From NCBI RefSeq assembly GCF_963921235.1, contig NC_086108.1:80168001-80232000 (forward strand): a stretch of DNA of 64,000 nt, read 5' to 3'. Origin of the DNA: Mobula hypostoma (lineage: Eukaryota). Positions 1,676 to 50,776 of the stretch are shown here, in pieces (within the stretch, counting starts at the first letter, position 1; each line of letters opens with the position of its first letter). Both the position numbers and the translations under genes were made by a program. Below the pieces are notes generated by a model. The model did no database searches. It saw nothing but the letters and a program-made list of their open reading frames with translations, and was not told the origin of the DNA.

Positions 1676-1840
1676 CCACACACAAAAAATGCTGGAGGAA
1701 CTCAGCAGGCCAGGCAGCATCTATGGAAAAAAGTACAGTCGACGTTTCTGGACGAGACTCTTTGGCAGGACTGCTGAGTTCCTTCAGCATTCTGTGTATG
1801 TTGCTTGGATTTCCAACATCTGTAGATTCTCTCTTGTTTA
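1676..1840. mobile_element. Penelope-like element terminus in inverted (foldback) arrangement, carrying a degenerate hammerhead-like motif
   Basis: cacacacaaaaaatgctggaggaactcagcaggccaggcagcatctatgga followed by its partial reverse complement. The minus strand of 1736-1773 reads CAGTC-CTGCCAA-...-GAAAC-GTC-GACTG. Confidence 0.7.
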
Positions 1841-1844
1841 TGAA

Positions 1845-2850
1845 AACAGGCCATTTGGCTCAAAATGTATAAACTACTGGACATCCATCCACATTCATCC
1901 TGTCCTCCAGCACTGATCCACAGCCTTCTGTGCTGAGGTGATTCAAGTACAAGTCTACAAACTTCTTTAATATTGTCAGCAACTTTGCTTCTACCATTCT
2001 TTCAAGCAGAACATTCCAGGTATTCACCATTCTTTGGGTGAAAAGGGTTCCCTCAGATCTCCTCTGATTCTTTTACCCCTAATCCTAAGTCTTGTTTTAT
2101 TCACCTCTGATAAGGAGAAAAACTTCCCTGCAGTCTACCCTATCTATACCCCTCATAATTTTATATAGCTCAATTATGTTCCCTCTTAAATTTCTTGACT
2201 CCAGGGAAAACAGAACCAGCCTCTCCAGTTTCTCCTTGTAACTGAAACACTCCATCCCAGGCAATATCCTGGGAAATCTCCTCTAGACCTTCTCCAATAC
2301 ATCTTTCCTACAGTGTGGTGACTAGAATTATATACAGTGGTCTTGTTAAGGTTTGACCAAGATTAATAAATTTGGAGCATAACCTCACTATTTTTATACT
2401 CAATGGCCCTGACAAATGAAGGCCAGTCTTCCACTTGCCTTCTTAACCATGTTCTGTATAAGTACTGCCATCTCAGTTTATCTTTGGACTTGCACACCAA
2501 TATTCCTGTGTTCCGCAAAGCTCCCTAGGACATAAGCTTTCATGATGCATGTCCTATTCTTATTAGTATTGCCAAAGGTATCATCTCATATTTGTCGTGA
2601 TTAAGCTCCATCTGCCATTTCTCAGCTCATTCCACCAACACATCAATATCACTCTGTAGCCCAAGACTATCCTCAAACTGTCAACAACTCTACCAATCTT
2701 CACATCACCTGCAAAGTTACTGATCATACCTCCCATAACTGTATCCAAATGACTCACACACATCACAAACAGCAAGGGTCTCAACACTGATCCCCGAGGA
2801 ACACCACGAGTTGCGAGCATACAATCACAAGCAACCTACTACCATCACTT
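1845..2850 (-). mobile_element. CR1-type LINE, degraded 3' part (continues at about 3290-3570)
   Basis: ORF 2581-2820 GVPRGSVLRPLLFVM...ISNFAGDVKIG is a decayed CR1 RT motif (GVPQGSVLGPLLF...FADDTK). ORF 3294-3551 contains FEVV...IDEESAVGVVY. Confidence 0.8.
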
Positions 2851-2852
2851 TT

Positions 2853-3272
2853 ATCAACACACAAAATGCTGGAGTAACCAGTTGACATCTTGGGTCAAGA
2901 CCTTTCATCAGGACTGGGGGAAAAAAAAGGGAAGTCAGAGTAAGAAGGTGGGGGGGTGTGGAAGGAAGAAGTATAAGGTAGTAGGTGACAGCTGAAACCA
3001 GGAGAAGGTCAGGGGTGAAGTAAAGAACCAGGAAGTTGATTGGGAGTCCGCTGAAGGATGCTGGAGATTGGGAGACTGCTTCACCGAGCACCTACTCTCT
3101 GTCTGCCAGAAAAAGCAGGATCTCCTGGTGGCCACCTATTTTCAATTCTACTGATGAAGGATCTTGGCCCAAGTGTCAACTGTTTGCATAGATGTCGGCT
3201 GGCCTGCTGAGTTCCTCTAGCATTTTGTGCATGTTGCTTGGATTTATAGCATCCATAGATTTTCTCGTGTTT
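2853..3272. mobile_element. Penelope-like element remnant: two inverted termini flanking a GIY-YIG-region fragment
   Basis: About 3060-3148 (+) reads RLGDCFTEHLLSVCQKKQDLLVATYF, similar to the PLE endonuclease motif R.xRFxEH...VAxHF. Inverted copies of the terminal repeat on each side contain CTGATGA. Confidence 0.75.
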
Positions 3273-4022
3273 CTGGTTCATCACTTTATCAGTCTAGGTT
3301 CTAGTTTGCCAACTTGTTCTGGATCCAATGAGCCGTAAACTTTTGGACCAGTTTCCCATGGGGGACATTGTCAAAGGCCTTAATGAAGTTACATAAACCA
3401 CACCTACGGCACTCTCCTCATCTATACAATTTGCTACAACCTCAAAAATATCAATCTGATCGGTCAGATGAGAACTGACGTTAACATAGCCAATACTGTC
3501 AATCTCTGGTACCAAATGATCATTAATCCTGTCATCTGAATTTTTTTCCAATGGCTTCCCTACTACTGATCTCTTTGAACATTTCCAATACCCTCAAGTC
3601 AGTTAAAGGAGGAGTAAGCACCCTTCAGATGCCAACCAAGAATTTCTATATTTATCTAGCTTTGTTTGGCAGTAAATTGGTGCACATGTGATTTAAAAAT
3701 AAAATCAATGTAATATGTTGGTTAAGCTGTTAAATCTTCAAATAAATCCTGTTCGCTCATTGCAATATTTAGTTACACTATATACAGTATAGACAAATTC
3801 TGGTCTAAACTCAAAAGTTAGAGCTGAACTTTTGACACTTCATTACCTCCCAAAAATACCATCAGCAAAATCTGTAGCAATTAAAAATGATCTTAATCAT
3901 TTTTAGCTAATCCACTCTGATCTGTATTGAGACAACCAATCTTTAACAGGACTCATCCCTCTGCTGGTGATTTTTCCAACACAAGCAGAAGTAAAAACTA
4001 CTAAGCAAGATACATTTCTTAC

Positions 4023-4213
4023 CTGTCGGTTGGCTTCAATATATGAAGGTAGAGTGTTTACACGGTAACACATCCCTTCTTCCATAATATGTACATAGCA
4101 GCGAAGTTTTGTTCCATGATATGGATCACTCATATCTCCATGATGATCATTCCAAAATGATTTTTCCCTGGCTAAATTCAGAAGATCATCCTCTTTTGTG
4201 TAACTGAATATAT
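4023..4213 (-). CDS. EIF2B3: eIF2B gamma subunit, internal coding exon (191 nt)
   Basis: (D)IFSYTKEDDLLNLAREKSFWNDHHGDMSDPYHGTKLRCYVHIMEEGMCYRVNTLPSYIEANRQ matches human DIYSF...[28 protein letters not shown]. Acceptor atttaAG, donor GTaaga. Confidence 0.96.
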
Positions 4214-4779
4214 CTTAAATAAACAAAGAAATAAACCTGTAAGTGCAACATGCATCAAGCAGAATTACTTAAATAAACAGACAAGGAATTAGATAGCATG
4301 TACAACATAAACATTAAAAAAAAACAAAAAGTGATGCCAAAGCAGGTCAGGCATCACATGTGGAGAGAGAAACAGTTAACATTTTAAATCTGAAACACTT
4401 CAGCAAAATTAGGCGAGTAACAAGTTGGTCCAGAAAATGTGGGAAAGTAGGAGAAGGCAGTAGTTGAAGCAAAGGGAATTTCTCTGATAGGCCAAAAACA
4501 ATGTGGACATTAACGTCACAGACTTTACATCAGCAACATATTAGACAGTCAAAGGAGTTCAGTTGCTCCTTAAAGGCCACAGTATTTCACATTATCAGAG
4601 AAATTTCCATTTTATTGTGTTCTTTAAAAATTCCCCAATATCACACCTTCTTCCAATCCAGCCCTTATTTTCTGCATTCTGACCTGAAACCAAATGGTAT
4701 TCTTAAACAATTAGTTTTAAGATAATTTATTTCCCTCCAGTTTTGTGGTTGACTGCATCCAGACTTTGCGCAGGTGGTG

Positions 4780-5400
4780 AGTGTTATACTTCAGATGTTA
4801 TATACTCCTTTCAACTACCTGTATTTTACCTACAAGAGCTTGTGTCATCCCTCATGCTACTTCTTTATATTGAATTGCCTTGGACTAAGGATTTCCATGA
4901 ATAGATGAGGCTATTATACATTTTCAAGGATGCTTTGATAATATCTTTGAAGGACTTCTCGATTCTCCAGACAAAGCTTAAAGGACAGTCCTTTGTTATT
5001 TTTAAGTAGTATGGTATCAAGCAACCAAATGGTATCCTGAGAATTAGAACTCACGGAGTATGATCGGCAACTGAGTGCTGGGAATTCTGGCCTTGGTGAG
5101 GTTCATACATCTGGCCAGTGGATTTGGAAGATCTTGCAAAGAAGACTTCTTCAGTGTTTTGGAGTGATGTTGTAGGTTATCCATGTCTCCAAGGAATATA
5201 GGAGAGTAGGTCATCACAAACATAGAGGTTAGACTGAACTGTTGACTTTAAACACTTTTACCCAGTCAGTCATAAGCTATCCTGGCACACTAAAGTTGGT
5301 GACGAATTTCATCATTAAGCGCTTGTCATGAGAAGTGATCCATATTTTCCACAGTCTGATCATTAAAGATGTTCTGTGCTGGGATTTATACAATTAGAAG
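4780..5400 (-). mobile_element. Old RTE-clade LINE fragment
   Basis: The minus strand near 5250-5380 gives ENMDHFS...DDEIRH...ARIAY...KSVF-like residues, resembling the RTE RT C-terminus. Heavily decayed. Confidence 0.5.
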
Positions 5401-5432
5401 ACCTATTACACAGAAATATCTACACAACATAC

Positions 5433-5560
5433 CTGCAGGCTTTGAGGTTTTCTTCTGATCTTCATTTATATTATCTTTAGAAAGCTGAGCAGAACTAGGC
5501 GAAGCAAACTGCTTTTGGACTAGATACGGAATCAATTCACCCCGGATTGATGTGAAGGAC
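5433..5560 (-). CDS. EIF2B3: eIF2B gamma subunit, internal coding exon (128 nt), not in the ORF track
   Basis: Manual translation SFTSIRGELIPYLVQKQFASPSSAQLSKDNINEDQKKTSKPA matches human [20 protein letters not shown]... Acceptor tctcttcaaAG, donor GTatgt. Confidence 0.95.
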
Positions 5561-6399
5561 CTTTGAAGAGAAACATTTTCATTACCAATAAAAAAAAGTG
5601 CTCTTCAGACTTAGTGTGCTTTTAATAATATTCTGGTGTGCTGAAATTATATGCAAGTGATTAAAAATGCAGGGTGTCTGACATAATATCCTACTTTTCT
5701 GTGCCCTATGTAAAACAAAAGGTAAAATACTTCTTCCCAGGAACAGCCAACCTCAGCCATTCTCTCACACCTCGGCAGTAGTACTCAGTTTGAAATTAAT
5801 TTGACCATTGTTCTCTCAGCAGTTAAGCAGAATGGAAAAGGTCAGACAGAAAAGTGGATTGGGAGTGTAGGATCAACCTATTCCATTCTGATTATGCAGA
5901 CGGGCTTGAAAGCCCATATGTTATACCTGCTTCTAAGTTTTCAATTAATCCATATAAACATGGCATGCAGTATTTAGTTATACCTACAAATCCAAACACA
6001 AACTATTGGATTATTAACAAAATGTAACAGTTAAATTGCTTTTGCATTGGTAAGCAATCAAGTATTACTAAGATAAAGGGATCTTAATTTGGACTGATAT
6101 ACAGAAGCAACATTAATTAAAGCATTCTGTATCTAATGACACATTTAGCACAAGCAATGTTTGGACTAAGACTGTCATAAATATGGGAAATATCAGTAGT
6201 AGATCTAGCAACATCTGTGAAGATTGAAACAGAGTTAACATTTCAGATCAATAATGTTGCACCAGAACCAGGAAAATTTAGAAACTAAAAATATTTTAAA
6301 TTGCTGAGAAAGTGGAGCAGCAAAGCAGGATAGAGGGAATTTCCGTGACAGGGATGGTGAGGTGAAGGTGAGAAAGAGCAGAAGTCATGGAAGAAAGAA

Positions 6400-8560
6400 G
6401 AAAGTTCTGTGGGATAAGAACAGGCCGAAATAACACAAGCTTGTTCTCTGGCAAGGATGTGATCGGTAAGTGGAAAGCCTTCAAAGGAGAAATTTTGAGA
6501 GAGCAGAGCTTGTATGTTCCTGTCAGGATTAAAGGCAAAGTGAATAGGAATAAGGAACCTTAGTTCTCAAGGGATATTGCAACTCTGATAAAGAAGAAGA
6601 GAGTTGTATGACATGTATAGGAAACAGGGAGTAAATAAGGTGCTTGAGAAGTATAAAAAGTGCAAGAAAATACTTAAGAAAGAAATCAGGAGAGCTAAAA
6701 GAAGACATGAGGTTGTCTTGACAGTCAAAGTGAAGGATAATCCAAAGAGCTTTTACAGGTATATTAAGAGTAAAAGGATTGTAAGTGATAAAATTGGTCC
6801 TCTTGAACATCAGAGTGGTCAGCTATGTGCGGAACCAAAAGAAATGGGGGAGATCTTAAATGGTTTTTTTGCGTCTGCATTTACTAAGGAAACTGGCATG
6901 AAGTCCATGGAATTAAGGGAATCAAGTAGTGAGATCATGGAAACTGTACAGATTGAAAAGGAGGAGGTGCTTGCTACCTTGAGGAAAATTAAAGTGGATA
7001 AATCCCCAGGACTTGACAGGGTGTTCCCTCGGACCTTGAAGGAGACCAGTGCTGAAATTGCAGGGGCCCTGGCAGATATATTTAAAATGTCGGTGTCTAC
7101 GGGTGAGGTGCCAGAGGATTGGAGAGTGGCTCATGTTGTTCCGTTGTTTAAAAAAGGATCAAAAAGTAATCCGGAAAATTATAGGCCAGTAAGTTTGACG
7201 TCGGTAGTGGGTAAGTTATTGGAGGGAGTACTAAGAGACAGAATCTACAAGCATTTGGATAGACAGGGACTTATTAGGGAGAGTCAACATGGCTTTGTGC
7301 ATGGTAGGTCATGTTTGACCAACCTATTGGAGTTTTCCGAGGAGGTTACCAGGAAAGTGGATGAAGGGAAGGCAGTGGATGTTGTCTACATGGACTTCAA
7401 TAAGGCCTTTGACAAGGTCCCGCATGGGAGGTTAGTTAGGAAAATTCAGTCGCTGGGTATACATGGAGAGGTGGTAAATTGGATTAGACATTGGCTTAAT
7501 GGAAGAAGCCAAAGAGTGGTAGTAGAGAATTGCTCCTCAGAGTGGAGGCCTGTGACTAGTGGTGTGCCACAGGGATCAGTGCTGGGTTCATTGTTATTTG
7601 TCATCTATATCAATGATCTGGATGATAATGTGGTAAACTGGATTAGCAAATTTGCTGACGATACAAAGATTGGAGATGTAGTTGACAGTAAGGAAGGTTT
7701 CCAGAGCCTGCAGAGGGACTTGGACCAGCTGGAAAAATGCGCTGAAAAATGGCAGATGGAGTTTAATACAGAAAAGTGTGAGGTATTGCACTTTGGAAGG
7801 ACAAACCAAGGTAGAACATACATGGTAAATGGTAAGGCACTGAGGAGTGCAGTAAAACAGAGGGATCTGGGAATACAGATACAAAATTCCCTAAAAGTGG
7901 CGTCACAGGTAGATAGGGTCGTAAAGAGAGCTTTTGGTACATTGGCCTTTATTAATCAAAATATTGAGTATAAGAGCTGGAATGTTATGATGAGGTTATA
8001 TAAGGCATTGGTGAGGCCGAATCTGGAGTATTGTGTTCAGTTTTGGTCAAATTACAGGAAGGATATTAATAAGGTTGAAAGAGTGCAGAGAAGGTTTACA
8101 AGGATGTTGCCGGGACTTGAGAAACTCAGTTACAGAAAAATAGATTAGGACTTTATTCCCTGGAGAGTAGAAGAATGAGGGGAGATTTGATAGAGGTATA
8201 TAAAATTATGATGGGTATAGATAGAGAGAATGCAAGCAGGCTTTTTCCACAGAGGCAAGGGGAGAAAAAAACCAGAGGACATGGGTTAAGGGTGAGGGGG
8301 GAAAAGTTTAAAGGGAACATTAAGGGGGGCTTCTTCACACAGAGTGGTGGGAGTATGGAATAAGCTGCCAGACGAGGTGGTAAATGTGGGCTCTTTTTTA
8401 ACATTTAAGAATAAATTGGACAGATACATGGATGGGAGGTGTATGGAGGGATATGGTCCGTGTGCAGGTCAGTGGGACTAGGCAGAATATGGTTCGGCAC
8501 AGCCAAGAAGGGCCAAAAGGCCTGTTTCTGTGCTGTAGTTTTTCTCTGGTTTCTATGGTT
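6400..8560 (+). mobile_element. CR1-type (HER1-like) LINE, 5'-truncated young copy with an open 514-aa RT ORF (6604-8148)
   Basis: KSPG.D, YRPVSLTS, QHGF...SCLTNL, DFNKAFDKV, GVPQGSVLG, SKFADDTK and LVRPNLEYCVQFW motifs. 3' UTR ends in a (tttctatgg)-like repeat tail. Confidence 0.95.
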
Positions 8561-8754
8561 TTTAAGTTCCACATTAGGACCGAAATAAATCATTAACGTG
8601 TTTTTAAAATTGCTACATAGAGAAACCTAACATTGTGAATGGCTGAAATGCTTCATTCTCAGATGAGCTCAGTGTTTTTCATGCACGCTTTGAAAGGCAG
8701 AATAAAATTACATTTGCGCGAATCACTGCAGCGTCTTGCAGTCCTCTGCTTTGG

Positions 8755-10425
8755 AGGCCAATGCCAGAACTTCTTTCAAGAGGGTGAAGGCATCAGGCCC
8801 TGATGATATATCTGGTAGGGCTCTGAAAACTTGTGCCAACCAACTGACAGGAGTGTTCAAGGACACCTTCAATCTCTGACTGCTGCAGCTGGAGGTTCCC
8901 ACCTGCTTCAAAAGAGTGACAATGATATGCACCAAAGAACAGCAGGGTCAGCTGCCTCAACAACTTTCATCCAGTGGCACTAACATCTGATGTGATGAAG
9001 CACTTTGAGAGGTTGGTCACTCACTACTAGAATCAACTCTTGCCTAAGCAAGGACCTGGTCCTGCTGTAATTTGCCTATCGCCACAATAAGTCTACAATG
9101 GATGCTATCTTAAGCACAAAATAATCTGCAGATACTGGGGTCAAAGCAACACTCACAACATGCTGGAGGAACTCAGCAGGTCGGACAGCATCTGTGGAAA
9201 CGATCAGTCAATGTATCGGGCCCCAACCCTTCGTGAGGACTGTAGAGGGAAGGGGCAGAGGCCCTATAATGAAGGTGGTTGGGGGGGGGCCTTCCCCTCC
9301 CCCACCCCTTTGTCTTTCCCCTTACTGGTTTTTCACCTGGAACCTACCAGCCTTCTCCTTCCCACCCTCCTCCCACCTTCTCTATAGGGCCTCTGCCCCT
9401 TCCCTCTACAGTCCTGATCGTTTCCACGGATGCTGCCCGACTTTAACTTTTTCACCACAGTCAGTGCAAACTGGAAACAACATCTCCACCTTGCTGACAA
9501 TCAACACTGGTACACCTCGAAGATTTGCGCTAAGCCCACTGCTCTACTCCCTGTACACCCACAACTGCACAGCTCTGCACAGCTTAAACGCCATTTATAA
9601 ATTTGCCAACAACATAACTATTGTTGGCAGAATTTTAGACGGTGATGAGGCGGCATACAGGAGCAATATAGATCAACAGGTTGAGTGCTATCGCAACAAC
9701 AACTTTGCACTCAACATCAGTAAGACCAAGGAAGTGCTTGTGGACTTCAGGAAGGGGAAACACAAACCAGTTCTCATCAAGGGAACAGCAGTTTTAAATT
9801 CCTGGGTGTCAACATCACTGAAGCTCTATCCTGGGCCCAACTTATCAATGCAACTGCAAAGGAGGCACAACAGTGGCTATATTTCATTAGGAGTTTGAGG
9901 AGATTTGGTATGTCACCAAAGGTACTCACAAATTTCTACAGATGTACGGTGGAAAGCATTCTGAGTGGATGCATCACCATCTGGTATGGAGGGGCCCACT
10001 GCACAGGATCAGAAAAAGCTGCAGGAAGTTGTAATTTCAGCAAGCCCCATCATGGGCACTAGCCTCTCCAGCATCAAACTGTGATGCCTGAAAAAGGCAG
10101 CATCCATCATTAAGGACCCCCCATCATCCGGGACCTGCCCTCTTCTCATTGCTACAATCAAGGAGGTCGTACCGGAGCCTGAAGACACACACTCAATATT
10201 TCAGGAACAGCTTCTTTCCGTCTGCTATTAGATTTCTAAATGGACAATGAATCCATGAATATTAACTCCCTATTTCCTGTCCGTTTGCACTACTTATTTA
10301 ATTCTTTATACACATTTCTTGTTGTAATTTATAGTTTTTTATTATTATATATTGCAATGTACTACTGCATCAAAACAACAAATTTCACAACATATGCCAA
10401 TGATATTAAACCGGATTCTGAAAAA
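8755..10425 (+). mobile_element. Rex1/Babar-type LINE fragment interrupted by a Penelope-like insert at about 9112-9445
   Basis: KASGPDDI...[18 protein letters not shown] at about 8785, and [13 protein letters not shown]...IYKFANNITIVG...LNISKTKEVLVDFRK in ORF 9194-9898. Tail attaaaccggattctga. Confidence 0.85.
9112..9445. mobile_element. Penelope-like terminal repeat pair, inverted
   Basis: tctgcagatactggg...caacactcacaacatgctggaggaactcagcagg, with an internal inverted repeat gactgtagagggaaggggcagaggccctata / tatagggcctctgccccttccctctacagtc. Confidence 0.7.
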
Positions 10426-15036: not shown

Positions 15037-15787
15037 CTTTATAACATCCATTCAAAGAAATGGAGATGCACTAAATATTTGGCACAAGGCAGAGGTGCCA
15101 GATACAAAACACGTTCATCCCCTCATGCTTAACAGGCTACAAAATGATCCTAGACATGACAGAAAATCCAGGAATAGACAGCAGGATAAGCATCATATTC
15201 CCAATTTGTGCAGAGCAGTGAACAAGCATGCAATGTTGAAACAAACTATCATTTGCATCATAGTGAAATATCTGAAAACAGCGACTAAACTTCAGCAGTA
15301 TTTTAGTTGTGAAGCATATTGGAATCTCCTGAGAGAGTGAAAGGCATCATTTAAATGCAAGTTCCTTTTTCAGACTCTATGAGGCCTCCACCATTTGTAT
15401 CAATCTACGTTTGTACATCAGTTCTGACCAATTAAAAGAAAAAATTCAAATACATTGGATTTGTCTGCAGTAAAATGGGCATTCAAGACTTGCCAAGTTT
15501 TTTTCTTGATACTTTCTTTGGTTTACCATTACGTTCTTTTTCTACTGTGAATGCACATCTCAATAGCTTTTGCTGCCTCAGCACTAAGTTGAACAGCATC
15601 ATGGCCTCATACACTCTGCTTGGCAGAGTTACAGTAATACCAAGAGCAGGACTGAGATCAATCCTTTCTGATGCTTGTCAATGACATACTTTCCAACTCT
15701 GACTTCCATAGGTGTTCACTTAATTCAAAAATTCAGAAATTTATGATAAACAAGCAAAGCAGATGCCAAACAAGAGAGAATCCGCAG

Positions 15788-17652
15788 GAGGGCTAAAAGA
15801 AGACATGAGGTTGCTTTGGCAGTCAAGGTGAAGGATAATCTAAAGAGCTTCTACAGGTATATTAAGAGCAAAAGGATAGTAAGGGATAAAATTGGTCCTC
15901 TTGAAGATCAGAGTGGTCGGCGATGTATGGAACCAAAAGAAATGGGGGAGATCTTAAATGGGTTTTTTGCATCTGTAATTACTAAGGAAACTGGCATGGA
16001 GTCAATGGAAATATGGCAAACAAGTAGTGAGGTCATGGAACCTATACAGATTAAGGAGGAGGAGGTGCTTGCTATCTTGAGGCAAATCAGAGTAGATAAA
16101 TCCCCAGGACCTGACAGGGTATTCCCTCAGACCTTGAAGGAGACTAGTGTTGAACTTGCAGGGGCCCTGGCAGATATATTTAAAATATCAGTATCTACGG
16201 GTGATGTGCTGGAGGATTGGAGAGTGGCTCATGTTGTTCCGTTGTTTAAAAAAGGCTCTAAAAGTAATCCGGGAAATTACAGGCCAGTAAGTTCGACGTC
16301 GGTTGTAGGTAAATTATTGGAAGGAGTACTGAGAGATAGGATCTACAAGTATTTGGATAGACAGGGACTTATTAGGGAGAGTCAACATGGCTTTGTGTGT
16401 GGTAGGTCATGTTTAACAAATCTATTAGAGTTTTTCGAGGAGGTTACCAGGAAAGTGGATGAAGGGAAGGCAGTGGATGTTGTCTACATGGACTTCAGTA
16501 AGGCCTTTGACAAGGTCCCGCATGGGAGGTTAGTTAGGAAAATTCAGTTGCTAGGTATACACGGAGAAGTAGTAAACTGGATTAGACATTGGCCCAACGG
16601 AAGAAGCCAGAGAGTGATAGTGGAGGATTGTTTCTCTGAGTGGAGGCCTGTGACTAGTGGTGTGCCACAGGGATCAATGCTGGGTCCAATGTTATTTGCC
16701 ATCTATATCAATGATCTGGATGATAATGTGGTAAATTGGATCAGCAAGTTTGCTGATGATACAAAGATTGGAGGTGTAGTGGACAGTGGGGAAGGTTTTC
16801 AAAGCTTGCAGAGGGATTTGGACCAGCTGGAAATATGGGCTGAAAAATGGTAGATGGAGTTTAATACAGACAAGTGTGAGGTATTGCACTTTGGAAGAAC
16901 AAACCAAGGTAGAACATACAAGGTAAATGGTAGGGCACTGAGGAGTGCAGTAGAGAGGGATCTGGGAATACAGATACAAAATTCCCTAAAAGTGTCGTCA
17001 CAGGTAGATAGGGTCGTAAAGAGAGCTTTTGGTACATTGGCCTTTATAAATCAAAGTATTGAGTATAAGAGTTGGAATGTTATAGTGAGGTTGTATAAGG
17101 CATTGGTGAGGCCAAATTTGGAATATTGTGTACAGTTTTGGTCACCAAATTACAGGAAGGATATTAATAAAGAGTGCAGAGAAGATTTACAAGGATGTTG
17201 CCGGGACTTGAGAAACTGAGTTACAGAGAAAGGTTGAATAGGTTAGGCCTTTATTCCCTGGAGCATAGAAGAATGAGGGGAGATTTGATAGAGGTATATA
17301 AAATTACGAGGGGTATAGATAGAGTGAATGCAAGCAGGCTTTTTCCATTGAGGCCAGGGGAGAAAAAGACCAGAAGATATGGGTTAAGAGTGAAGGGGGA
17401 AAAGTTTAAAGGGAACATTAAGGGGGGGGGGGCTTCTTTACACAGAGAGTGGTGGGAGTGTGGAATGAGCTGCCAGATGAAGTGGTAAATGTGGGCTCAC
17501 TTTTAACATTTAAGAAAAACTTGGATGGGCACATGGATGAAAGGTGTATGGAGGGATGGACCAGGTGCAGGTCAGTGGGACTAGGCAGAAAAATAGTTTG
17601 GCACAGCCAAGAAGGGCCAAAAGGCCTGTTTCTGTGCTGTAATGTTCTATGG
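15788..17652 (+). mobile_element. CR1-type LINE, second 5'-truncated copy of the family at 6400-8560
   Basis: ORFs 15816-16853, 16854-17219 and 17174-17488 are nearly identical in protein to ORF 6604-8148. One in-frame TAG and frameshifts. Same 3' tail. Confidence 0.95.
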
Positions 17653-18060
17653 TGGAAATCAAAGCAACACACACACAAAATGTTGGAGGAACTCAACAGG
17701 CCAGTAAATCCTTCGACAGCCCCGAAATGCCAACTCTACTTTTTTCCATAGATCCTTGAATCTTTGGACACTACCTCACTTTTTTTTTTAATATACAGTA
17801 TTTCTGTTTTTGCACATTTTTAAAATCTATTCAATACACGTAATTGATTTACTTGTTTATTGATTGTTACTATTACTTTTATTTTATTTATCATTTTTTC
17901 TCTGCTAGATAATATATTACATTGAATTGCTGCTGCTAAGGTAACAAATCGTGCCGGTAATAATAAACCTGATTTTCATTCTGCTGCCTGGCCTGCTGAG
18001 TTCCTCCAGCATTTTGTGTGTGTTGCTCAGATTTCCAGCATCTGCAGCTTTTCTCTTGTC
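17653..18060. mobile_element. Penelope-like inverted termini with an inserted Rex1-type 3' UTR (about 17755-17980)
   Basis: caacacacacacaaaatgttggaggaactc at about 17665 and its reverse complement at 17983-18058. The AT-rich Rex1-like tail between them ends in aataaacctgatt. Confidence 0.65.
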
Positions 18061-18699: not shown

Positions 18700-19950
18700 T
18701 TGATAGACTGATGGAGAAGGCATATGGTTTATCTGCCTTCAAAGGTCTGGGGGCAAAATATATGAAATGGATCATTGTGTTGCAACTTAATGTAAAAAAA
18801 AACTAGTTAGGGCACACCTTTGAGTATTATATCCAGTTCTGTCTGCTGTGCTACAGTAAGGCTGTGTTTGTACTAGAGACTCTACAGAGGAGATTCACCA
18901 GAAGTCCTGATGAATGGTCTTGGTCTGAAATGCCAATCGTTATTCCTCTCCATAGATGTTGCCTGACCTGCTGAGTTCTTCTGGCATTTTCTGTGCATTG
19001 CTCTGAATTTCCAACATCTACAGAATCTCTTATGTTTATAACCAATATATCGCCTGTATCCCTTAAGTTGTTATAGCCTGGTGGGGGGCGTGGTACTGGG
19101 GACAAGCTCCTGCTACTTATTAAATGCTCCCAATGGCGTGCTCCTCAAATAACTTATGACAACCAAGTCCAGCTGCGGGCCTTCATGTGTGGCTCAGAAG
19201 GGGCAAATGGGGCTCATCCGCCGTGGTTGGCAGCTCATCTAAGAGAAGGAAAACTCTGATCTCAAACCTCCACTACCTTGCGGCCATACCCACTCATGGG
19301 AAAGGTTTCGGGAGTAAACCCTGAGGGAAAAATCTAGAGCTGGATTCCCTAAAGCAGTCCTACATTAAGTTCAATGCTGAATTATGCAACATTGCTGGTA
19401 CCAAACTGTATCATTCTCTGCTGTTCCTTTGGGTTCATCAGTTGCTTGCAGAGGGGGAGTTTGCTACACGGGCAACAGCTTGCTTTCCATATCGTACTGC
19501 CCAGAATTGCGTATCTAGCCAGCTAGGATGCAATATCCATGGTCAGCTCTGAGCGATGGAGGCCCTCACTTTACCATTGCCTTGTAATGGAAGACTTTAG
19601 TTATGGAGAGAAATTGGATAAACTGGGTTTGCTTTCTCTGGAACAAAGGAGGCTGAGGAGTGACTTGAGAGTATACAATTTTATGAGAGACACAGATAGG
19701 ATAGATAGACAAATCTTTTACCCACTGTGGGGTATCAACAACAAACTAGCATAGATTTAAAGGAATTCAGAGGGATGTTTCAATTTTACACAGAGTGGTT
19801 GGTATCTGGAATGCACTTCTTGAACAGATGTTAATACAATTGTTACAATTAAGAAATATTTAAACCAACACTTAAATAGGCAAGGCATTGTCCTAATGTT
19901 GGCAAATTTCACTAGTGTTGATGGGCAAAAAGGTGGAGATGGACAGTGAT
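18700..19950 (+). mobile_element. Old CR1 3' fragment interrupted by a Penelope-like terminus (about 18903-19040) and an RTE-related short element (about 19065-19565)
   Basis: LVRAH...YYIQFC at about 18800 resumes as FSYGEKLDKLGLLSLEQRRLRSDL at about 19595. Confidence 0.7.
19065..19565 (+). mobile_element. About 500-bp non-autonomous RTE-related element (copy 1 of 3)
   Basis: Shares blocks (accaagtccagct, gaaaactctgat..aaacctcc, gcggccatacccac, ttcgggagtaaacc, catgggcaac) with 23567-24075 and 41175-41768. Confidence 0.65.
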
Positions 19951-21056
19951 TGAGTTGATAATGATTTAACTCCGGGGGTCAGAAAACCACTAGTAAATCT
20001 GAAATGCATATAAAGGATACATAAGGAGAGAAAAAAGGATCAGCTTCACCAGGCTGTTGAAAGAACTACAATTTTTAACCACAATGTATAAAGCAGTTAT
20101 CTTTGTTCTGTTAGAGGTTTCTTACCTGATACTTAGTTTTATCATGTGTTAAGGTCTATTGTAGATCTCAAATGTCTTGCTGTGATACATTTATTTTGGA
20201 TTTGTAATATGCAAAATAAGAATGCGATAGGATGCTAGAGTTTATTTTGTATGTTTATTTAAACTTACACATCAAAATAACTTTAAAAACTTTAATAAAA
20301 TAATCAAACTGATGTATAGCTTAAGGTGCTGGTAATTGGTTGATAATTGGTTGACCCTGCATAATTTCCAAGTGGGAAACTTGTAAATCTCAACCTAGCT
20401 TTCTGTGCCAGTCAGAAGAAATCCTTTACCTACCATGAAAAAGAAACAAAAACTCACAGTTGTCAATGTGATAATGTCAACAGATTTGAAAGTAATTTTT
20501 GATGTAATCTCGTGGAGGAGTTTGCACTTTGCTGATGTAGTATTCGGGTGATGCAGGAAAGCTGGTAAAATAGCTGAAAACCTATTAACCAAACAGCTAA
20601 AAACAAACCTGAAACCAATCATCAACTGAGACATTCAAGGACTTGAACCCTTAATTTTAGTTTGAAAAGAATCTAGTTTCAAACTTTTTGGTAAAAATAA
20701 ATGCTTGCCTCAAAGAAAGATGAAAAATAAATATTTCTACCAACGAGTTTGAAACTAAATTCAGTTTTAAACAAAAGTTTAAGGGTTGAAGCCCTTGAAT
20801 GACGCGGAAAAACATTTTTTCTTGCGTGGGAAGCAAACTCTTCATTCCTTTAAAGATTACATCGTTTTTAATGTACTCAGATGAATAAGACATGTACATC
20901 TAAGCATGTGGAATCCATGCTTCTAAAAACACAGATAATCCCCAGAAAAACATATGTTTTTGATCCAAATATACTATTTAATAACTCTATTTCTAAAGTA
21001 CTGCTGTGATGCATAGAACACCGACTATATTTGGCAAAGGTTTATACTTTAAAATA

Positions 21057-28895: not shown

Positions 28896-29583
28896 AAAAC
28901 TTGCTCCATGCGAAGTGGTAAATGCTTCCTCTCATTTTATTTCATTTTTGCAAGTTCTGTTTAAAAGCAACTATTTTTATAGTGAACTTCACTACAAAAT
29001 ATATGCAAAATTGACAATTCTCCTCACTGATTGAGTATAGATTCTACAATACACAGAAATCTGCAAACCACCTGAAACAAAGATATTTGCTGTTTAACAT
29101 CTCATCTAATATTATAAACATTCACTTTCTCCAACAATTGAGTACTGTGGTTATGGTACGTACTATTTACAAACTGAACACTGCAGCTTGACAAGGTTTC
29201 GTCAACAGTGCCTCACGAAACTATAAACTATTTTTCAAAAATGGCAAAAATAAAATGTGCATAGGAATGTAAACTTGTGTCACAGTACCCTTAAAAACAT
29301 ACAATTTTCTCCTTACTGAAGGTTAAAATTCCTAAAACTTCTATTTAAAAGCACTGTTGAAGGTTCTTCCTGAAAAGGTCTACAATTATTCAAGAAAGTG
29401 GCTCACTACCATATTCCCAGAGGCAATTAGGGAAGGCCAATAAACACTGGCCTCATCTCAGGGAAATTTAATAACTTATACTAGGCTACTTTTATAAAGG
29501 TCGATTATTTAAGAAACCTATAGAGACCAGAACTCAAGTATAGAAGGTACACAAATATTTGGCCAACTTGTATATTTGCTTGC

Positions 29584-29762
29584 AACACACACAGAATGCT
29601 GGAGGAACTCAGCAGGCCAGGCAGCATCTATAGAAGAGTGCAGTCAATGCTTAAGCCCAAAATGTTGACTGTACTCATAGATGCTGCTGGCCTGCTGAGT
29701 TCCTCCAGCATTTTGTGTGTGTTACTTGGATTTCCAGCATCTGTAGATTTTCCCTTGTTTGT
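29584..29762. repeat. Foldback palindrome of two Penelope-like termini
   Basis: aacacacacagaatgctggaggaactcagcaggccaggcagcatctat ... atagatgctgctggcctgctgagttcctccagcattttgtgtgtgtt. Confidence 0.85.
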
Positions 29763-32187
29763 ACATTTGCTGATTTTAACCAAATCTCAGATATTTCTGA
29801 TAAATTACCAGTTTCCTTATTGATTGCAACTCCCATAGTGAAGACAGCTTTCTGGAATGAAATCAATCTTGCAAATGAATTACAAACTGAAAGAAAGTCA
29901 AAGTTCTTCAACTAGACTGTGTCACCTAAGCACATCAAAGAGGATATTCAAGATTTTACAGTTTATCCCAATGTTGTTGTCAGTGACCCTGCCCTGACTG
30001 AAAGGTCAAGCTTTGTTACATAAGGAAAACACCAGTCCTTCAGATCAAAGTCCTATATACAGCCCAGCAAACTCTGTCCTATAAAACCTGTTTTATGTCT
30101 GTGGATTGTAACTAATGTATAGACATTTTTGGAGCATTCTAAGAAATACTATTTGCAAATACTTCTTTAATAAGGAGTAACATCCAACATTTAAGCATAA
30201 AAAGTTAATTGTGTCTTTTCCTTCATTGTCTGCTGCATGAGAACATTTAATAAAGCAACTGACCATTTAGCTCTGCTTTGAAATGATGCCCAAAAATTCA
30301 GCATCAGAAAAGAGGAAGATCATACCACAACAATGGCTAGGTCCTTGCGGACAGCTTTCTTTGATGATATTTTACGCTATCACTTTGATCCTGTTGCTTT
30401 AAAGGACTAGTGAAGGACATGAGGGCGCATGAAGGAAATAAATGCTAAAGATGGTGGGTGGGCTGCCAAAAAAGCAGGGTACTTTGTTTTTGATGAGTGT
30501 CATCTCCTTGAATTTTGTTGGGTGTGCTGTCATCTAAACATGTGGAGAATATTCCATCACAGTCCTAAATTGTGTCCTAAAATTGGTGGAAAGATTCTGA
30601 GCTTTGACAAAGTGAACTACTTATAGAACAGTACTTAACCAGCAACCTGCTCTTGGAATTGCAGCATTTATTTGGCTGGTTAAGTTACATTCCTGATCAA
30701 TGGTGACTCCTGCTATGCTGATGGTTGGGGATTAATACCACTGAACGTCAGAGGTAGGTGGCAAGATTGTTTTGGTGGAGATGGTGCCTAGTACTTTTGA
30801 GGCATACGTTTCTTGCTGTTGTGCTGCCTGCAAGCACAGACTACTTCATTTTCTGAGGAGTTGTGAACAGAATTAAATATTGCATAATCAGCTTTTCTCC
30901 CAACAGATCTGCTGGGTATTTCTAGCGTTCTCTATTGTTTCAAATTTCGAACATCTACTAAGTTCTGAACCCCCAGTTTCAGTATTTTTTCTCTATTTTC
31001 CTCAATATTCTATTAACACTCTGTTAAATAGATCACTTGTGATTAACAGGTATTCATCAACATCTTTGAGTTAGCGTGAACACCTTCTGTGTCAGCAGAG
31101 CAATCTGGATTAAACCTCATCACAGGCAATTCCTTTGCACTTTTCACCTCTGTCCCTCTAGCCAATTTAAAACACACTCTTTCACTCCTGATGAACTATC
31201 ATCAACCTGAAACACTCTTTTTCTCTCAATTCATTGATGCTCCCTAACCTGCTGAGTAGTTTTTGCATTTTTTAAAAATTTTGTGGTGTTTTTTTTTGCT
31301 TTTCAGTTTTATATGGTCTCCTGATTGCTACATCCAGTTTCGAATTGAAACATTATTGTAACACGTACCCCAGTAGAGTGAAAAGAAAGTTTACCTTGCG
31401 TACTGTTCATTCAGATTAATTCAACACTGCATTGAGATAGTACAAGGTAAAGTAATAACAGAATGCAAAACAAAGTGTTATAGCTGCAAAGAACGTGAAG
31501 TGTAGGTAGACAATAAGGTGCAAGATTGTGAGGTCTAGAGTCCATCTTATAATACTAGGGGACCATTCAACAGTCTTATAGCAGTGAGGCAGCTATCTCT
31601 GAACCTGGACATACATGCTTTTAGGCTTTTCTATCTTTTGCCCTGTGTGTGAGTGGAAAAGAGAGAATGGCCAGGGTGGGTGGGCCTTTGATTATACTGG
31701 CTTCTTTATTGAGGCAGCAAGAGTATAAACAGAGAGAAAGCTGGTTTCCAGTGAATAGCACTCTCACTTCTCCAGAATTTAGCACATTGGACCAAAGCCT
31801 TAATGTGATCTGGACTGTGGTTTGTCTCTGTTTTGATTGCAGTGTTTATTGAATATTTATCAAATATTGACCAGACACTTACCCCATTCAGTTTTTGTGA
31901 AAACATACACTTGACCTAAATAGTAATGAGTTAGGGTACAATATTGTTAAAAGTCTTGACAGGTCAAGAACCACATTAGAAGTTATTTACAATAAGAAAA
32001 ACTCAAAGCTATATGTAGAAATTTCATGCAATTTTCTTGTACTATGCCATCGGATGAAATATTGAGCAACCAAGCAAGTAGCTCTTTTAAATGAGCTGTT
32101 GCAGGGCTCTCTAAAAGCAACAAAATTAATCTGCTGTAGCATTGATTTCAATGGCAATTAATGCTTTTTGACTTGAGAAAATTTTAC

Positions 32188-33810: not shown

Positions 33811-33994
33811 ATGCAGAATAAAGTTTAACAGCTACAGAGAAAGTGCAATGCAGGTAGACAATAAGGTGCAAGGACATTACGTGATAGAATGTATGATCAA
33901 GGCTCTGTATTAGCATGCTAAGGATCCATTCAGCAGTCATGACATTGGGTAGAAACCATCCTCAAGCCAAAAAAGGGGGCGGGGGGGAAGCAAT

Positions 33995-34830
33995 TTAAAC
34001 TCAAAAGATTCTGCAGATGCCAAAAATCTTGAGCAACACATACAAAATGCCAGAGGAACTGAGCAGTCAGATGGCATCAATGGAGGGGAATAAACAGTTG
34101 TCGTTTCAAGCTGAGATCTCTCATCAGAACTGGAAAGGAAGGGGAAAGAAGCCAGAAGGCGGCAAAGGGAAAGAAAGGACTACAAGCTGGTAGGTGATAA
34201 ATAAGATCAGAGGAGGGGGAAGGTGAGTGGATAGGGGAGGAGTGGATGAAGTTAGAACCTGGGAGAGATGGAAGAAGTGAAGGGATGAAGAAGGAAGATC
34301 ATGGAAGAAAGGGAAGGAGGGACACTAGAGAGAGGTGATAAGTGCGTGAGAAGGGAACCAGAATGGGGAGTGAAAGAGGGGAGAAATTACTGGAAGTTAG
34401 AGGTATCAATGTTCATGCCATCAGGTTCAAGACTATCCAGATGGAATATGAGGTGTTGCTCCTCCAACCTGAGTATGGACTTATCATAGCAGCTTGGGGC
34501 CCTGAATGGTGGTGACGGAGGAAGTGTAGAACTTGTCCCACTTGCAGGGATAAGTGCCAGGGGAGATCAGTGAAGAGGAATGAGTGGACAAGGAAGTCAT
34601 GTAGAGAGCAATCACTATGAAAAGCGGCGAATGGGGAAAGGAAAAATGTGCTTAGTGGTCGGATTCCATTGTAGATGGTATAAGTTACATAGAATGATGT
34701 GCTGTATAGGGAGGCTCATAGGTTTACAGATAAGGACATAGGGCACCTTATCTCTTTTATACGGTGGCAGAAGAATGGGGTGAAGGCAGATGTGCAGGAA
34801 ATGGAGATGCGGGTAAGGTTAGCATCACTC
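33995..34830 (-). mobile_element. Penelope-like element 3' fragment with its terminal repeat
   Basis: The minus strand of about 34390-34470 reads RLEEQHLIFHLDSLEPDGMNIDTSNFQ*, like a PLE GIY-YIG C-terminus. It is followed by a pyrimidine-rich tract, a CTGATGA...GAAAC motif and the family terminus. Confidence 0.75.
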
Positions 34831-39492: not shown

Positions 39493-40334
39493 TGTTCATA
39501 CCAAAGATATCTGTGAGGCTTGACAGGGTTGATACTGAGAGCATGTTTCCCCTTGTGGTGGAATCTAGAGCTAGAGCTGCACAATTTCAGAATAATGGAT
39601 CACTCATTTAAGACATATGAAATGGAATGCCAAATCTTTGGAATTCATTACCCAGGAACTATAGAAGTTGGATCTTTGAATACATTCATGGCTGAAATGT
39701 TTGATCTAAAGGTGCTTTATGTTATGGGAAACAGGCAGGAACGCAAAGCTCAGTTCAAGATCTGAACAAACATGATCTTATGATTTGCAGACAGTTAACT
39801 ACTACAATTTTTTAATTAACATGTTACTTTCTCCAGTTAGATGTTTCAGATACAGCTACACCGAAGACAGTGAACCTTTTAAAGAAAGTTAAGATACGTG
39901 AATCCTAAGCAACTTTTTTCCAAACATTAAATAATTATTTTCATTTCAATTTCTTTTCCACTGCATCAGCAATCTGACATTTCAGACCATGAAGTCATCA
40001 GACATGAAGATATCAACTTCTGACTGAACAAAACTTTGTCCAAGGCAACTACACAAAACCTTAGTTAGGCCACACATGGAGTTCCGTGCCCAGTTAAAGC
40101 TGCCACATGATGAAAATGGCATGATTACGCAGGAGTGCGTACAGAGAAATATACCAGGACGTTGCCTGGGATGGAGCATTTCAACTGTCAGAAAACAGCA
40201 GACAAATCAGGTTTGTTTTTCTTGGAAAACAGAAGGTCGAAGTTAACTTGATTGATGTACACTGAATTATGATTTTTTCTCCCTGGGAGAGGTGCTTATA
40301 ACTAAAAGGCATTGATTTAAGATAAAATTCAGAG

Positions 40335-47813: not shown

Positions 47814-47953
47814 CTTAATTTTTCCATGTATCTGTCGTAAGGAATCTGCAGTTCCCATATCAGTGTCCTCAGGAATGTACACCATATCCAATTTCATCTT
47901 TGTGTCCAATTGTTGATGTTTTTGGACCTCTTTTGTTGTGACCACAATTACTT
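47814..47953 (-). CDS. EIF2B3: eIF2B gamma subunit, internal coding exon (140 nt; equivalent to the human exon starting at E50)
   Basis: Reads (E)[46 protein letters not shown], matching recalled human EVIVVTTRDVQK...[16 protein letters not shown]. Acceptor ttttccAG at 47954-47955, donor GTaatg at 47812-47813. Phase 1 in, phase 0 out. Confidence 0.96.
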
Positions 47954-48469
47954 CTGGAAAAGAAAGTAACTAAGAATTTCCAATCATAATGCATATACAG
48001 AACAAAGAACTTAGAAATGATCAACTGTTTAACCTTTTAGGTATCAAAGGTATTTGTACAGAAGGATATATGAAGATTATTTGGCACAGCAATGCAGCTT
48101 GTTCCTTCTTTGCTACCTTTGATTTGGTCACTTAAAACCAAATAGATGTGTTCACACAGAGTGAACTGAGATGGTGGTTATGAATGCTAAACATATAATG
48201 TATGACAAACAGAATGTGGGCTATTGTTTATTCTCATATTAATCAGGACCTTGCTTGCATAAAATATTTTTCAACAAGTAACCTGTCCAACTTGAAAATC
48301 AATGAGTTGAAGTGTACATTATGCACAAGAAAAAAGTGTGCTGGAATAGTTGTCTGAACTAAATGGAGACTATGGAGAGAAGGCAAGATAATGACGAAGG
48401 CTCTTAGGAAGATTAGGGACAAGGAGAGGAAACTTGTGGAATTTGAGTGGTGACAAAGATTCAGCATAA

Positions 48470-50776
48470 ACAATCCACTGACACACTCATAAACCAGGCC
48501 TAATTCTTCATGAATTAATTTTGCTTGCTCCTTCACTATCTTTGCTGACAGTTCTACACCTTTGCTGATGCAGAGTTTAAACCACTTCATGAGTACTTTA
48601 TCTAGTTGTGAACATCTTCCATCTTTCATTGTTTTTCTTCTGCACATCTGTTTTTTTTTTGATCCGCTGTCAGCAAAGAACTGAAGTAATTTTTTTTGTT
48701 TCTTTATATCATGAACTAGTGGTCTCCAACATTTTTTAAGCCCAAGATCCCCTACCTTGACTTTAGTGAAAGGCAAGATCTACCTACTGAATTGTTTAGA
48801 GAAAAAACAGCTCAGATTGTACTTCCAATTTGAGGCCTTTAATTTGGGCTAATTGTATTTGAATTACACAAAATACATTTGTCAAACTTTCAGATTAATT
48901 CAAACAAGAAAACACTGTAACTAGCATATCAAAGAGGCCATAGTTGTCTTTCTTTAAGAATAATACTTCACACCTTTAATTCTAAGTTTCATTGTTTAAT
49001 TTTATTTCAACACGAAAAATAAATGAATAAAAATTGACTGTTGCACTCAATGTGATGACTGGGGCTGAATACTTCATGCCAGTTCCCTGAAATTTGGCTC
49101 ATAACTACAGACAGCCAGTCTGAGACAGTCTGTGAGGTGTCTGTCAGTAAGACAGTTCCTGTACTTAGATTTAATAATTTTCATCTGTGAAAATGCAAGT
49201 TCACATAGAGAAGTTGACCCGAAGTAGGCACTGACCTTTAGTGCTATAAAACCAACACGCACACCGTGCATTGCTGGGGCCCCATCAGTAGTAATTGCCA
49301 CCAGTTTTTGAATGGGGATGTCACTTTCACAGACATTTTTTTTAAACTCATTGTAAATATCCTCACCTCTCGTTCTCTCCTTCAATTGCAAAAGAGTGAG
49401 GAAGTCCTCCTTTGCTGAAAAATCCTGGAAAGCCATTCTGACAAATACAACAAGCTGAGCTGTTTGCATTACATCCAGAGATTCATTGAGCTGTAGCGAA
49501 AAGTATTCACAGAGTGACAAGTCGATCCACGAACCCCGACAGTGATTCTACCCTCCTTGTCACAGTTGCAGAGCCAAGAGGTATAGTATGTATTGCGGTT
49601 GTGATGCCGTTTTTATTTTTAAGGTCGTTAAAAACAGTCTCTGTGGTAATGGCCATTGCTTTCTTGAATAAATCGCCATCTGTAAAAGGCTCCTTGTGTT
49701 TAGCCAAAAGGTGACTTACACGAAATGATGCTTCAATAGCAGCCGTATTTTGAGAAGCATGTTTTGTGAAAAACGATTGCTGGGCCTTCAATCCAGATTT
49801 CAGTTCCTCAACTTTCCTGGCATGAATTGCGCCCTCTGAGGGGCAGGAGTCTTTAAATTTCTGGTGGTTGGTGTTGCGGTGCTGCTCCAGATTCCCTCTT
49901 TTAGTCAGTGCTTGTGTTTGGTGGCACAACATACACACACACTTGTCTTTCACCAAGGTAAATATAAATTCCTCTTCCCATTCTGGATGGAATTTGTACA
50001 TTTTCGCCTTCTTTCGTGGAGCCTCTGCCACGTTATCAGGATATCACAAACGAGTGCCGTATATTGATGTTTGTGACAGTCTGTACTCTTATCCAATCTA
50101 ATTGGTCACTTTGATGCAGCACAAGCTACGCTGAAAACGCAGTGCATGGCGGGAGAGCTACACACATGCGCACTGGGCAGAAAGAATGGAACTAAAACCC
50201 CACAACCCGGAAACAATCTCTCTTTACAAACAGCTTTCAGTAGCGAAAGTATTGCTACATACTACTATCCTAATTAGTATTACTTATTTTTATAATGCTC
50301 ACATTACAACAGTATTTGTGTATTTATTTTTGATTTTTTTTCGGGATCTACTGGGAAAGTCTCCAAGATCGACCGGTTGATCGTGATCGATGGGTTGGCG
50401 ACCACTATCATAAACTGTGGAAGAGCCAGTGTTATACAAGTCGCATATACTTTTCACAGACAGACCACTGTCAAGTTTTTCAGAACTTCCACCTTATCTT
50501 GTATATAAAATGTATGGTGTTTGTGCTTTACACCATGAGAAGCACTTCCTTTATTCAATTAAGATCTGACTGGGGCTAGATGAGAACAGGTTATAAAATT
50601 ACAAAATTACACAGAAGGCTGTGCAAACAGCTGATTTTGCTAATAGCACCACCAAAACAGTGGTGATGGGTTGGTGTGGTGACGGAGGAAATCTGAAATC
50701 AAGCTGGTGAAAACTAACTCCGAACCTGTGGTGGAACCACCAATTACTGATTGCTGGATTCAAGGTGGTTGACCTG
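48470..50776 (-). mobile_element. pogo/Tigger (Jerky/CENP-B-like) transposon 5' part, split by a hAT insertion
   Basis: TA-caggtcaaccaccttgaatcc terminus at 50776. Minus-strand GVKHKHHTFYIQDKVEVLK.LDSGLSVKSICDLYNTGSSTVYD (about 50530-50408) continues as IKKQKKLLQFFADS...LDKVLMKWFKLCISKGVELSAKIVKEQAKLIHEELGL (48708-48490), the two CENP-B-type HTH domains. Confidence 0.85.
48717..50407 (-). mobile_element. hAT (Buster/Charlie group; GTF2IRD2/EPM2AIP1-like transposase) DNA transposon, internally deleted
   Basis: TIRs tagtggtctccaac / gttggcgaccacta; 8-bp TSD tcatgaac/tcataaac. ORFs 49507-50031 (CVCMLC...H..H zinc finger, KHKEPFTDGD, TVTRRV) and 49074-49520 (FSLQLNES.D, TTDGAPAM, FGSTSLCELAFSQMKIIKSKYR). 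Confidence 0.93.

Follow-up and report, generated by a model that had tools for sequence, protein, structure and literature searches.

The element at positions 2857–3278 of the window (the whole 64-kb stretch of Mobula hypostoma DNA analysed here) is, with high probability, a dead Penelope-like retroelement (PLE) insertion of the endonuclease-bearing kind, probably Neptune-type, the clade being assigned by eye and the endonuclease at the level of motifs. The insertion was shown to consist of two 3′ element fragments in head-to-head arrangement, with a tail at one end, and each fragment carries a broken copy of a minimal hammerhead ribozyme motif. The first-pass annotation correctly traced the minimal type I hammerhead motifs to the terminal repeat of a Penelope-like element that has inverted ends and is present in high copy number. 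The two focal motifs as well as the five other copies it cited were recovered with the sequence and positions it had reported. The locus is a dead, ordinary copy of a very abundant Penelope-type element and matters little by itself.

The insertion was found to be bracketed by a target-site duplication of 13–14 bp, the 14-nt left copy (2843–2856, plus strand) being identical at 13 of 14 positions to the 13-nt right copy (3279–3291, plus strand). The score of this duplication was reached by 0.3% of 3000 random flank pairs. Because the duplication brackets 2857–3278, the whole of this region is regarded as the product of a single insertion event. The extent had previously been set at 2853–3272; the part 2857–3272 belongs to the element, but 2853–2856 is part of the left target-site duplication, and the true span is 2857–3278. 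The sequences flanking the insertion aligned with consecutive stretches (7290–7429 and 7512–8245) of a LINE copy containing a reverse transcriptase (RT), which shows that the element was inserted into an older LINE on the minus strand (2118–2852, resuming at 3354–3492), which we take to be of CR1 type. The LINE copies at 6592–8383 and 15750–17560 were 72–94% alike in the aligned blocks, and the former keeps an open RT frame of 518 aa (Pfam RVT_1).

An exon of EIF2B3 was identified at 4023–4214 on the minus strand (E 2e-14 to residues 262–325 of eIF2B gamma). Since this exon ends at a GT donor at residue 325 of the 452-residue eIF2B gamma, the insertion lies within the EIF2B3 intron that follows, and the left hammerhead motif is in sense orientation relative to the host pre-mRNA. 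A second EIF2B3 exon was detected at 47814–47951 on the minus strand (E 2e-9 to eIF2B gamma), and the next exon of the gene was not recognised in the window, nor by eye in 1–1030. The minus-strand segment 18091–18180 is presumably an EIF2B3 exon as well; a distal repeat and tail of the element family were observed at 17985–18060, about 30 nt past its donor side.

The left arm is on the minus strand and starts with the distal terminal repeat (2857–2878), which has no tail and from which about 36 nt near 2874–2878 are deleted according to the alignment; family contigs have 34–38 additional letters at this point. Next to it are a dead minimal hammerhead (2879–2916, minus strand), in which CUGAUGA is intact, G10.1, G12 and A14 are changed and the closing pair of stem I is broken, and the element's 3′ UTR (2917–3046, minus strand), which is rich in pyrimidines, inverted, covered by family contigs and collinear with the UTR of a longer copy at 34130–34270 on the minus strand. 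The inversion junction was placed at 3038–3064, with a 9-nt word at 3038–3046 that occurs again at 3066–3074. The segment 3047–3064 may represent filler, or the endonuclease piece may have had a false start here, and the repetition of the 9-nt word across 3038–3074 suggests microhomology-guided joining with such a false start.

The right arm (3065–3278, plus strand) contains a C-terminal fragment of a GIY-YIG-type endonuclease at 3065–3148 (RLGDCFTEHL ... DLLVATYF, then a frameshift), which is fused straight to CUGAUGA at about 3148–3151. Judging from the sequence, this is an internal deletion at 3148/3151 by which the C-terminus of the endonuclease was lost together with the UTR and stem I's 5′ strand. 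The fragment is followed on the plus strand by a dead partial hammerhead with a broken GAAA and without the 5′ strand of stem I (3151–3182), the distal terminal repeat (3183–3238), which is the family's most abundant segment, a 34-nt tail (3239–3272) that is absent from the left arm, and six further nucleotides (3273–3278). The earlier description of the two motifs as flanking a GIY-YIG fragment is therefore accurate for 3065–3148, but most of the intervening DNA (2917–3046) is inverted 3′ UTR, and the GIY-YIG label is based on motifs, with no database match. One-sided extensions like 3239–3272 were also present in two other insertions of the window (1679–1839 and 29581–29758).

In this layout, an inverted 5′-truncated copy adjoins the main copy, and the 34-nt extension at one end falls within the 30–40 bp class of tails. 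Inverted truncated copies and a one-sided tail of 30–40 bp are standard for PLEs (PMC8557442), and a 5′-truncated PLE whose 5′ end bears another minimal hammerhead, on the opposite strand, was presented in 2014 (PMC4209133, Fig. S4A). The layout of the element, including the second minimal hammerhead on the opposite strand, is thus already published for PLEs.

Besides the layout, the coding remnants of the family point, at the level of motifs, to an endonuclease-bearing PLE. Family contigs were found to extend upstream of 3065, in frame, to YIGETRR by hand translation (at least 165–325 contigs per run in four of four runs), and downstream of 3142 a further open frame was present in family contigs (at least 139 and at least 99 contigs in the two runs listed). 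The undeleted order is given by the longer 3′ copy at 33990–34820 on the minus strand, which consists of a degenerate linker, the endonuclease C-terminus with a stop at about 34388, the UTR, the hammerhead (34095–34132, U16.1 changed), the distal repeat and the tail. Compared by eye with Fig. S2 of PMC8557442, fragments of the family peptides look like the endonucleases of Neptune elements, the resemblance including YIGET..L..RF..H, a PVA.HF-like stretch and E..I..L....P.G.N. As regards the Neptune zinc finger (CX2-5CxxC, in the linker that joins RT and endonuclease), the frame at 34487–34651 contains a degenerate PGTYPCK.. stretch with one Cys left. The family also resembles the endonuclease-bearing Neptune PLEs in its 5′ truncation, the adjoining inverted copy, the tail at one end and the position of the hammerhead behind a putative C-terminal endonuclease of GIY-YIG type (PMC8557442). 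In contrast, Naiad has a similar endonuclease that is N-terminal, and is described in the same paper as being without canonical hammerheads.

Degenerate endonuclease fragments of 30–100 aa gave no match in Pfam, in word-index searches (three fragments), in PDB or in Atlas, and none of 1.84 billion proteins was matched when the 31-aa focal fragment was run in a full HMMER scan; blank protein searches are weak evidence when the fragments are this short and degenerate. No PLE reverse transcriptase of the family was seen within the 64-kb window.

Four other copies matched the 38-nt left motif at 25–28 of 38 positions, compared to best matches of 21–24 of 38 in 20 random 64-kb sequences generated under a dinucleotide model, which shows that the family is not due to chance. 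The loose pattern CUGANGA-N8-20-GAAA was not enriched (six matches in the window versus 3.4 ± 1.8 expected; 14 of 100 shuffles reached six). A match to CUGAUGA..GAAA-UGUC at 39980–40001 on the minus strand was regarded as a chance occurrence, as it is without stem I and the family flanks. For the ancestral motif, CpG-aware reconstruction from the seven window copies agreed at 37 of 38 positions with the sequence proposed in the first-pass annotation, and core position 7 may be either U or C. Stems I and II of the reconstruction each form with a probability of 0.9–1.0. The consensus contains CUGANGA, an unpaired extra base, a G10.1-C11.1 pair closing helix II, GAAA-C-G-U-C, a palindromic 15.2–16.2, a NUH cleavage triplet and a short helix I, with a stem I of 5 bp. 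In this it is like the published minimal hammerheads, which have the consensus CUGANGA, the extra base between 9 and 10.1, G10.1-C11.1, GAAA-C-G-U-C, the palindromic 15.2–16.2 and the short helix I (PMC4209133). The loose-end consensus of the family contigs gave GAAAC and GACUG, with A instead of G at 16.2 in that contig class, probably because contigs bearing G align further, into another class.

A reading of the motif as a chance resemblance within a SINE or MITE, and not as the relic of a ribozyme, would agree with the blank protein searches, with a Rfam scan in which no hammerhead family was among the six matches up to E 10, and with the folding of single decayed copies, which did not exceed that of shuffles (z −0.5 to +1.2). 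However, the reconstruction shows all the features listed for the published minimal motif and is situated directly behind an endonuclease-like frame, so that this reading is considered extremely improbable.

The hammerhead relics were shown to be decayed throughout the window. The combination of CUGANGA, GAAA and NUH was kept in none of the seven cited copies, and a descriptor scan of the whole 64-kb window gave no complete hammerhead motif. Both focal copies had lost GAAA (AAGAU in the left and AAGU in the right), with G12 and A14 changed in both. The decay at CpGs that had been noted earlier was borne out, as 13 of 20 inferred CpGs in the five ungapped copies read TG or CA and 5 were intact; in the same copies 15 of 40 cells at CpG positions were changed, compared to 25 of 150 at other positions. 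The decay of the core (5/35 and 3/20) was near that of other non-CpG positions (25/150). Covariation of paired positions was not above that of shuffles, 321 of 500 of which reached the observed value, in a comparison of five sequences only. Patterns for the intact motif gave no match in metagenome or viral contigs. No RNA holder of the sequence was listed either, which does not bear on its expression.

These results bear on the suggestion that the motifs are working self-cleaving cassettes, here in the EIF2B3 pre-mRNA. In favour of this, the left motif has the orientation of the host transcript and retains both CUGAUGA and GUC. Yet G12 and A14 are changed in both arms, the 5′ strand of stem I is absent from the right one, none of the seven cited copies is intact, and neither excess conservation nor covariation was detected. 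Because the two focal motifs point in opposite directions, any one transcript carries a motif plus its antisense, and the active dimer is ruled out within a single RNA of this insertion. In the predicted fold of the host-sense RNA (−127 kcal/mol, z −3.5) the motifs pair with one another. Even intact minimal motifs showed no cleavage as monomers and weak cleavage as dimers (PMC4209133), and eight of nine Xenopus retrozyme dimers assayed did not cleave (bioRxiv 10.64898/2026.07.22.740005). The earlier proposal of a family of self-cleaving cassettes was therefore not supported, and we give the cassette reading of this locus practically no credence.

Besides the focal insertion and the longer copy, the window was shown to contain further family copies of different extent. 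A short two-armed copy at 1679–1839 has a perfect 14-nt target duplication (14/14 at 1665/1840) and a hammerhead at 1736–1773 on the minus strand in which CUGAUGA is broken. Another short two-armed copy, at 29581–29758, has a 13-nt duplication (12/13 at 29568/29759) and only the 3′ halves of the motif. The copy at 9146–9411 contains a hammerhead at 9205–9242 (minus strand) with a broken core and an inner inverted copy of the UTR, which ends in the 5′ portion of another motif. The inverted duplication of the UTR end in this copy comprises 33 identical nt, and its two motif starts differ in the core. On the plus strand, a single-arm copy that starts at the hammerhead was found at 18902–19039, with the NUH broken, and a strongly diverged copy, in which the stems of the motif are lost, at 31183–31290. 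No target duplication joining 17665–17756 with 17985–18060 was found; of the three candidates tested besides the focal insertion, the other two have one.

With respect to abundance, 18,525 contigs of run X1, which may come from the source sample, matched a 751-nt stretch at 80% likeness, and the same stretch gave 17,396, 13,459 and 16,105 contigs in runs of three other organisms. The distal repeat had a summed depth of 2.2 million, compared to 16–17 for unique contigs, which suggests that family copies are on the order of 100,000, although summed depth is no copy number. Minimal hammerheads are known from the terminal repeats (pLTRs) of metazoan PLEs, including Xena, Poseidon and Neptune of fishes, and from thousands of dispersed single copies (PMC4209133). 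The ray family appears to be far more abundant than the 4,000–9,000 motifs of coelacanth and Xenopus given there. It also differs from that set in that Table S1 and Fig. S3 of the paper list no cartilaginous fish, and in that both focal copies are broken. In literature searches, with Repbase and Dfam outside their scope, none of the papers listed dealt with the family in rays or sharks.

Among the contigs listed from a related organism (B), both outer junctions of the insertion were spanned, by matches to 2700–2988 (two other letters and one gap) and to 3197–3450, and in another organism (C) a listed contig spanned the right junction (3209–3442). A contig of a further organism (D) was excluded, as fewer than 31 of its letters were inside the element. 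From these spanned junctions it follows that the insertion is older than the splits from organisms B and C, as are most lesions of the left motif. No contig bridging the internal junctions was among those listed from other organisms.

The focal insertion could also be thought of as a retrozyme or a non-autonomous mini-element of fold-back type, spreading as one unit, given its size of about 420 nt, its inverted ends, its target duplication and its stable predicted hairpin (z −3.5). Non-LTR retrozymes are likewise small PLE-derived repeats bearing hammerheads; they derive from PLE terminal repeats and were present in the one chondrichthyan sampled (bioRxiv 10.64898/2026.07.22.740005). However, retrozymes consist of units that are arranged head to tail in tandem and have complete motifs (bioRxiv 10.64898/2026.07.22.740005), whereas the focal element is a head-to-head single insertion with a coding remnant and broken motifs. 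Two or more head-to-tail units, each with a complete hammerhead, by which retrozymes are recognised, were not found at the focal insertion, which is not a tandem array. A unit that spreads as such is also contradicted by the collapse of family contig depth at the internal junction at 3142–3167, from 503,425 to 2,875, with at least 139 contigs of run X1 diverging beyond 3142. Moreover, the breakpoints differ in each two-armed copy of the window, and among the contigs listed the only long one across 2926–3092 has a single-copy depth of 16. Spread as a mini-element or retrozyme is therefore considered very unlikely.

For the preferred reading, a dead two-armed PLE insertion, a mechanism may be proposed from what is published on PLEs. 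The endonuclease of the element would nick both strands 13–14 bp apart, and reverse transcription would start at two neighbouring internal sites of the RNA, leaving one end tailed and the other tail-free. The two truncated copies would then meet at a short shared word, and the deletions would arise during copying or later. The hammerhead would be carried along passively by the terminal repeat. Its probable activity in the active parent was a weak cutting of multimeric element RNA, either as a dimer or aided by protein, whereas the copies present here decay neutrally and would be without effect on the host gene. The protein of PAc, a Poseidon element of Anolis carolinensis, cleaves the two strands, extends both of them and has two adjacent internal sites at which reverse transcription begins, and the PAc hammerhead is protein-assisted and dispensable for insertion in vitro (PMC11167929). 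Two such adjacent start sites would, by analogy, account for the one-sided tail of the focal insertion. PAc belongs to a clade other than the one assigned here, and the mechanism is carried over by analogy only.

Compared to the consensus, the two focal arms were found to have five derived changes in common, namely four transitions at CpGs, all running the same way, plus an A-to-G change in GAAA, the last of which depends on gap placement, and two private changes each. Within the 3′ half of the motif the arms were identical at 19 of 21 positions, which was the highest value among 36 copy pairs (the next being 17/22), and the chance of the arms agreeing at all four CpGs was about 0.004–0.03, as estimated from the states in the other copies. 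The distal parts of the arms were less alike (17/20, rank 11 of 66 pairs). This pattern, a single case noticed post hoc, may indicate that the RNA from which the insertion was made already had a dead hammerhead, which is the simplest reading but one to which we give somewhat less than even weight; conversion from arm to arm after the insertion would look alike. If true, copying from a dead hammerhead would be a genomic record of the PLE machinery mobilising ribozyme-dead copies in vivo, matching the dispensability of cleavage in vitro. The need for cleavage in vivo was called unclear in PMC8557442 and was addressed only in vitro in PMC11167929. The family represents a very large natural sample of paired-arm PLE insertions, which could be used for testing whether hammerhead cleavage is needed in vivo.

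Other repeats were also observed in the window. The minus-strand region 48243–50043 contains DNA-transposon remnants, with a Tc5-type HTH (48246–48779) and a Spin-doc zinc finger (49510–50043), probably a hAT-type transposase fragment. A MITE-like structure was found at 54770–55014, with inverted arms of 82 nt that are 89% complementary and 81 nt apart. Finally, an AT-rich hairpin at 20660–20772 gave a sub-threshold Rfam miRNA match and is probably a small inverted-repeat element.
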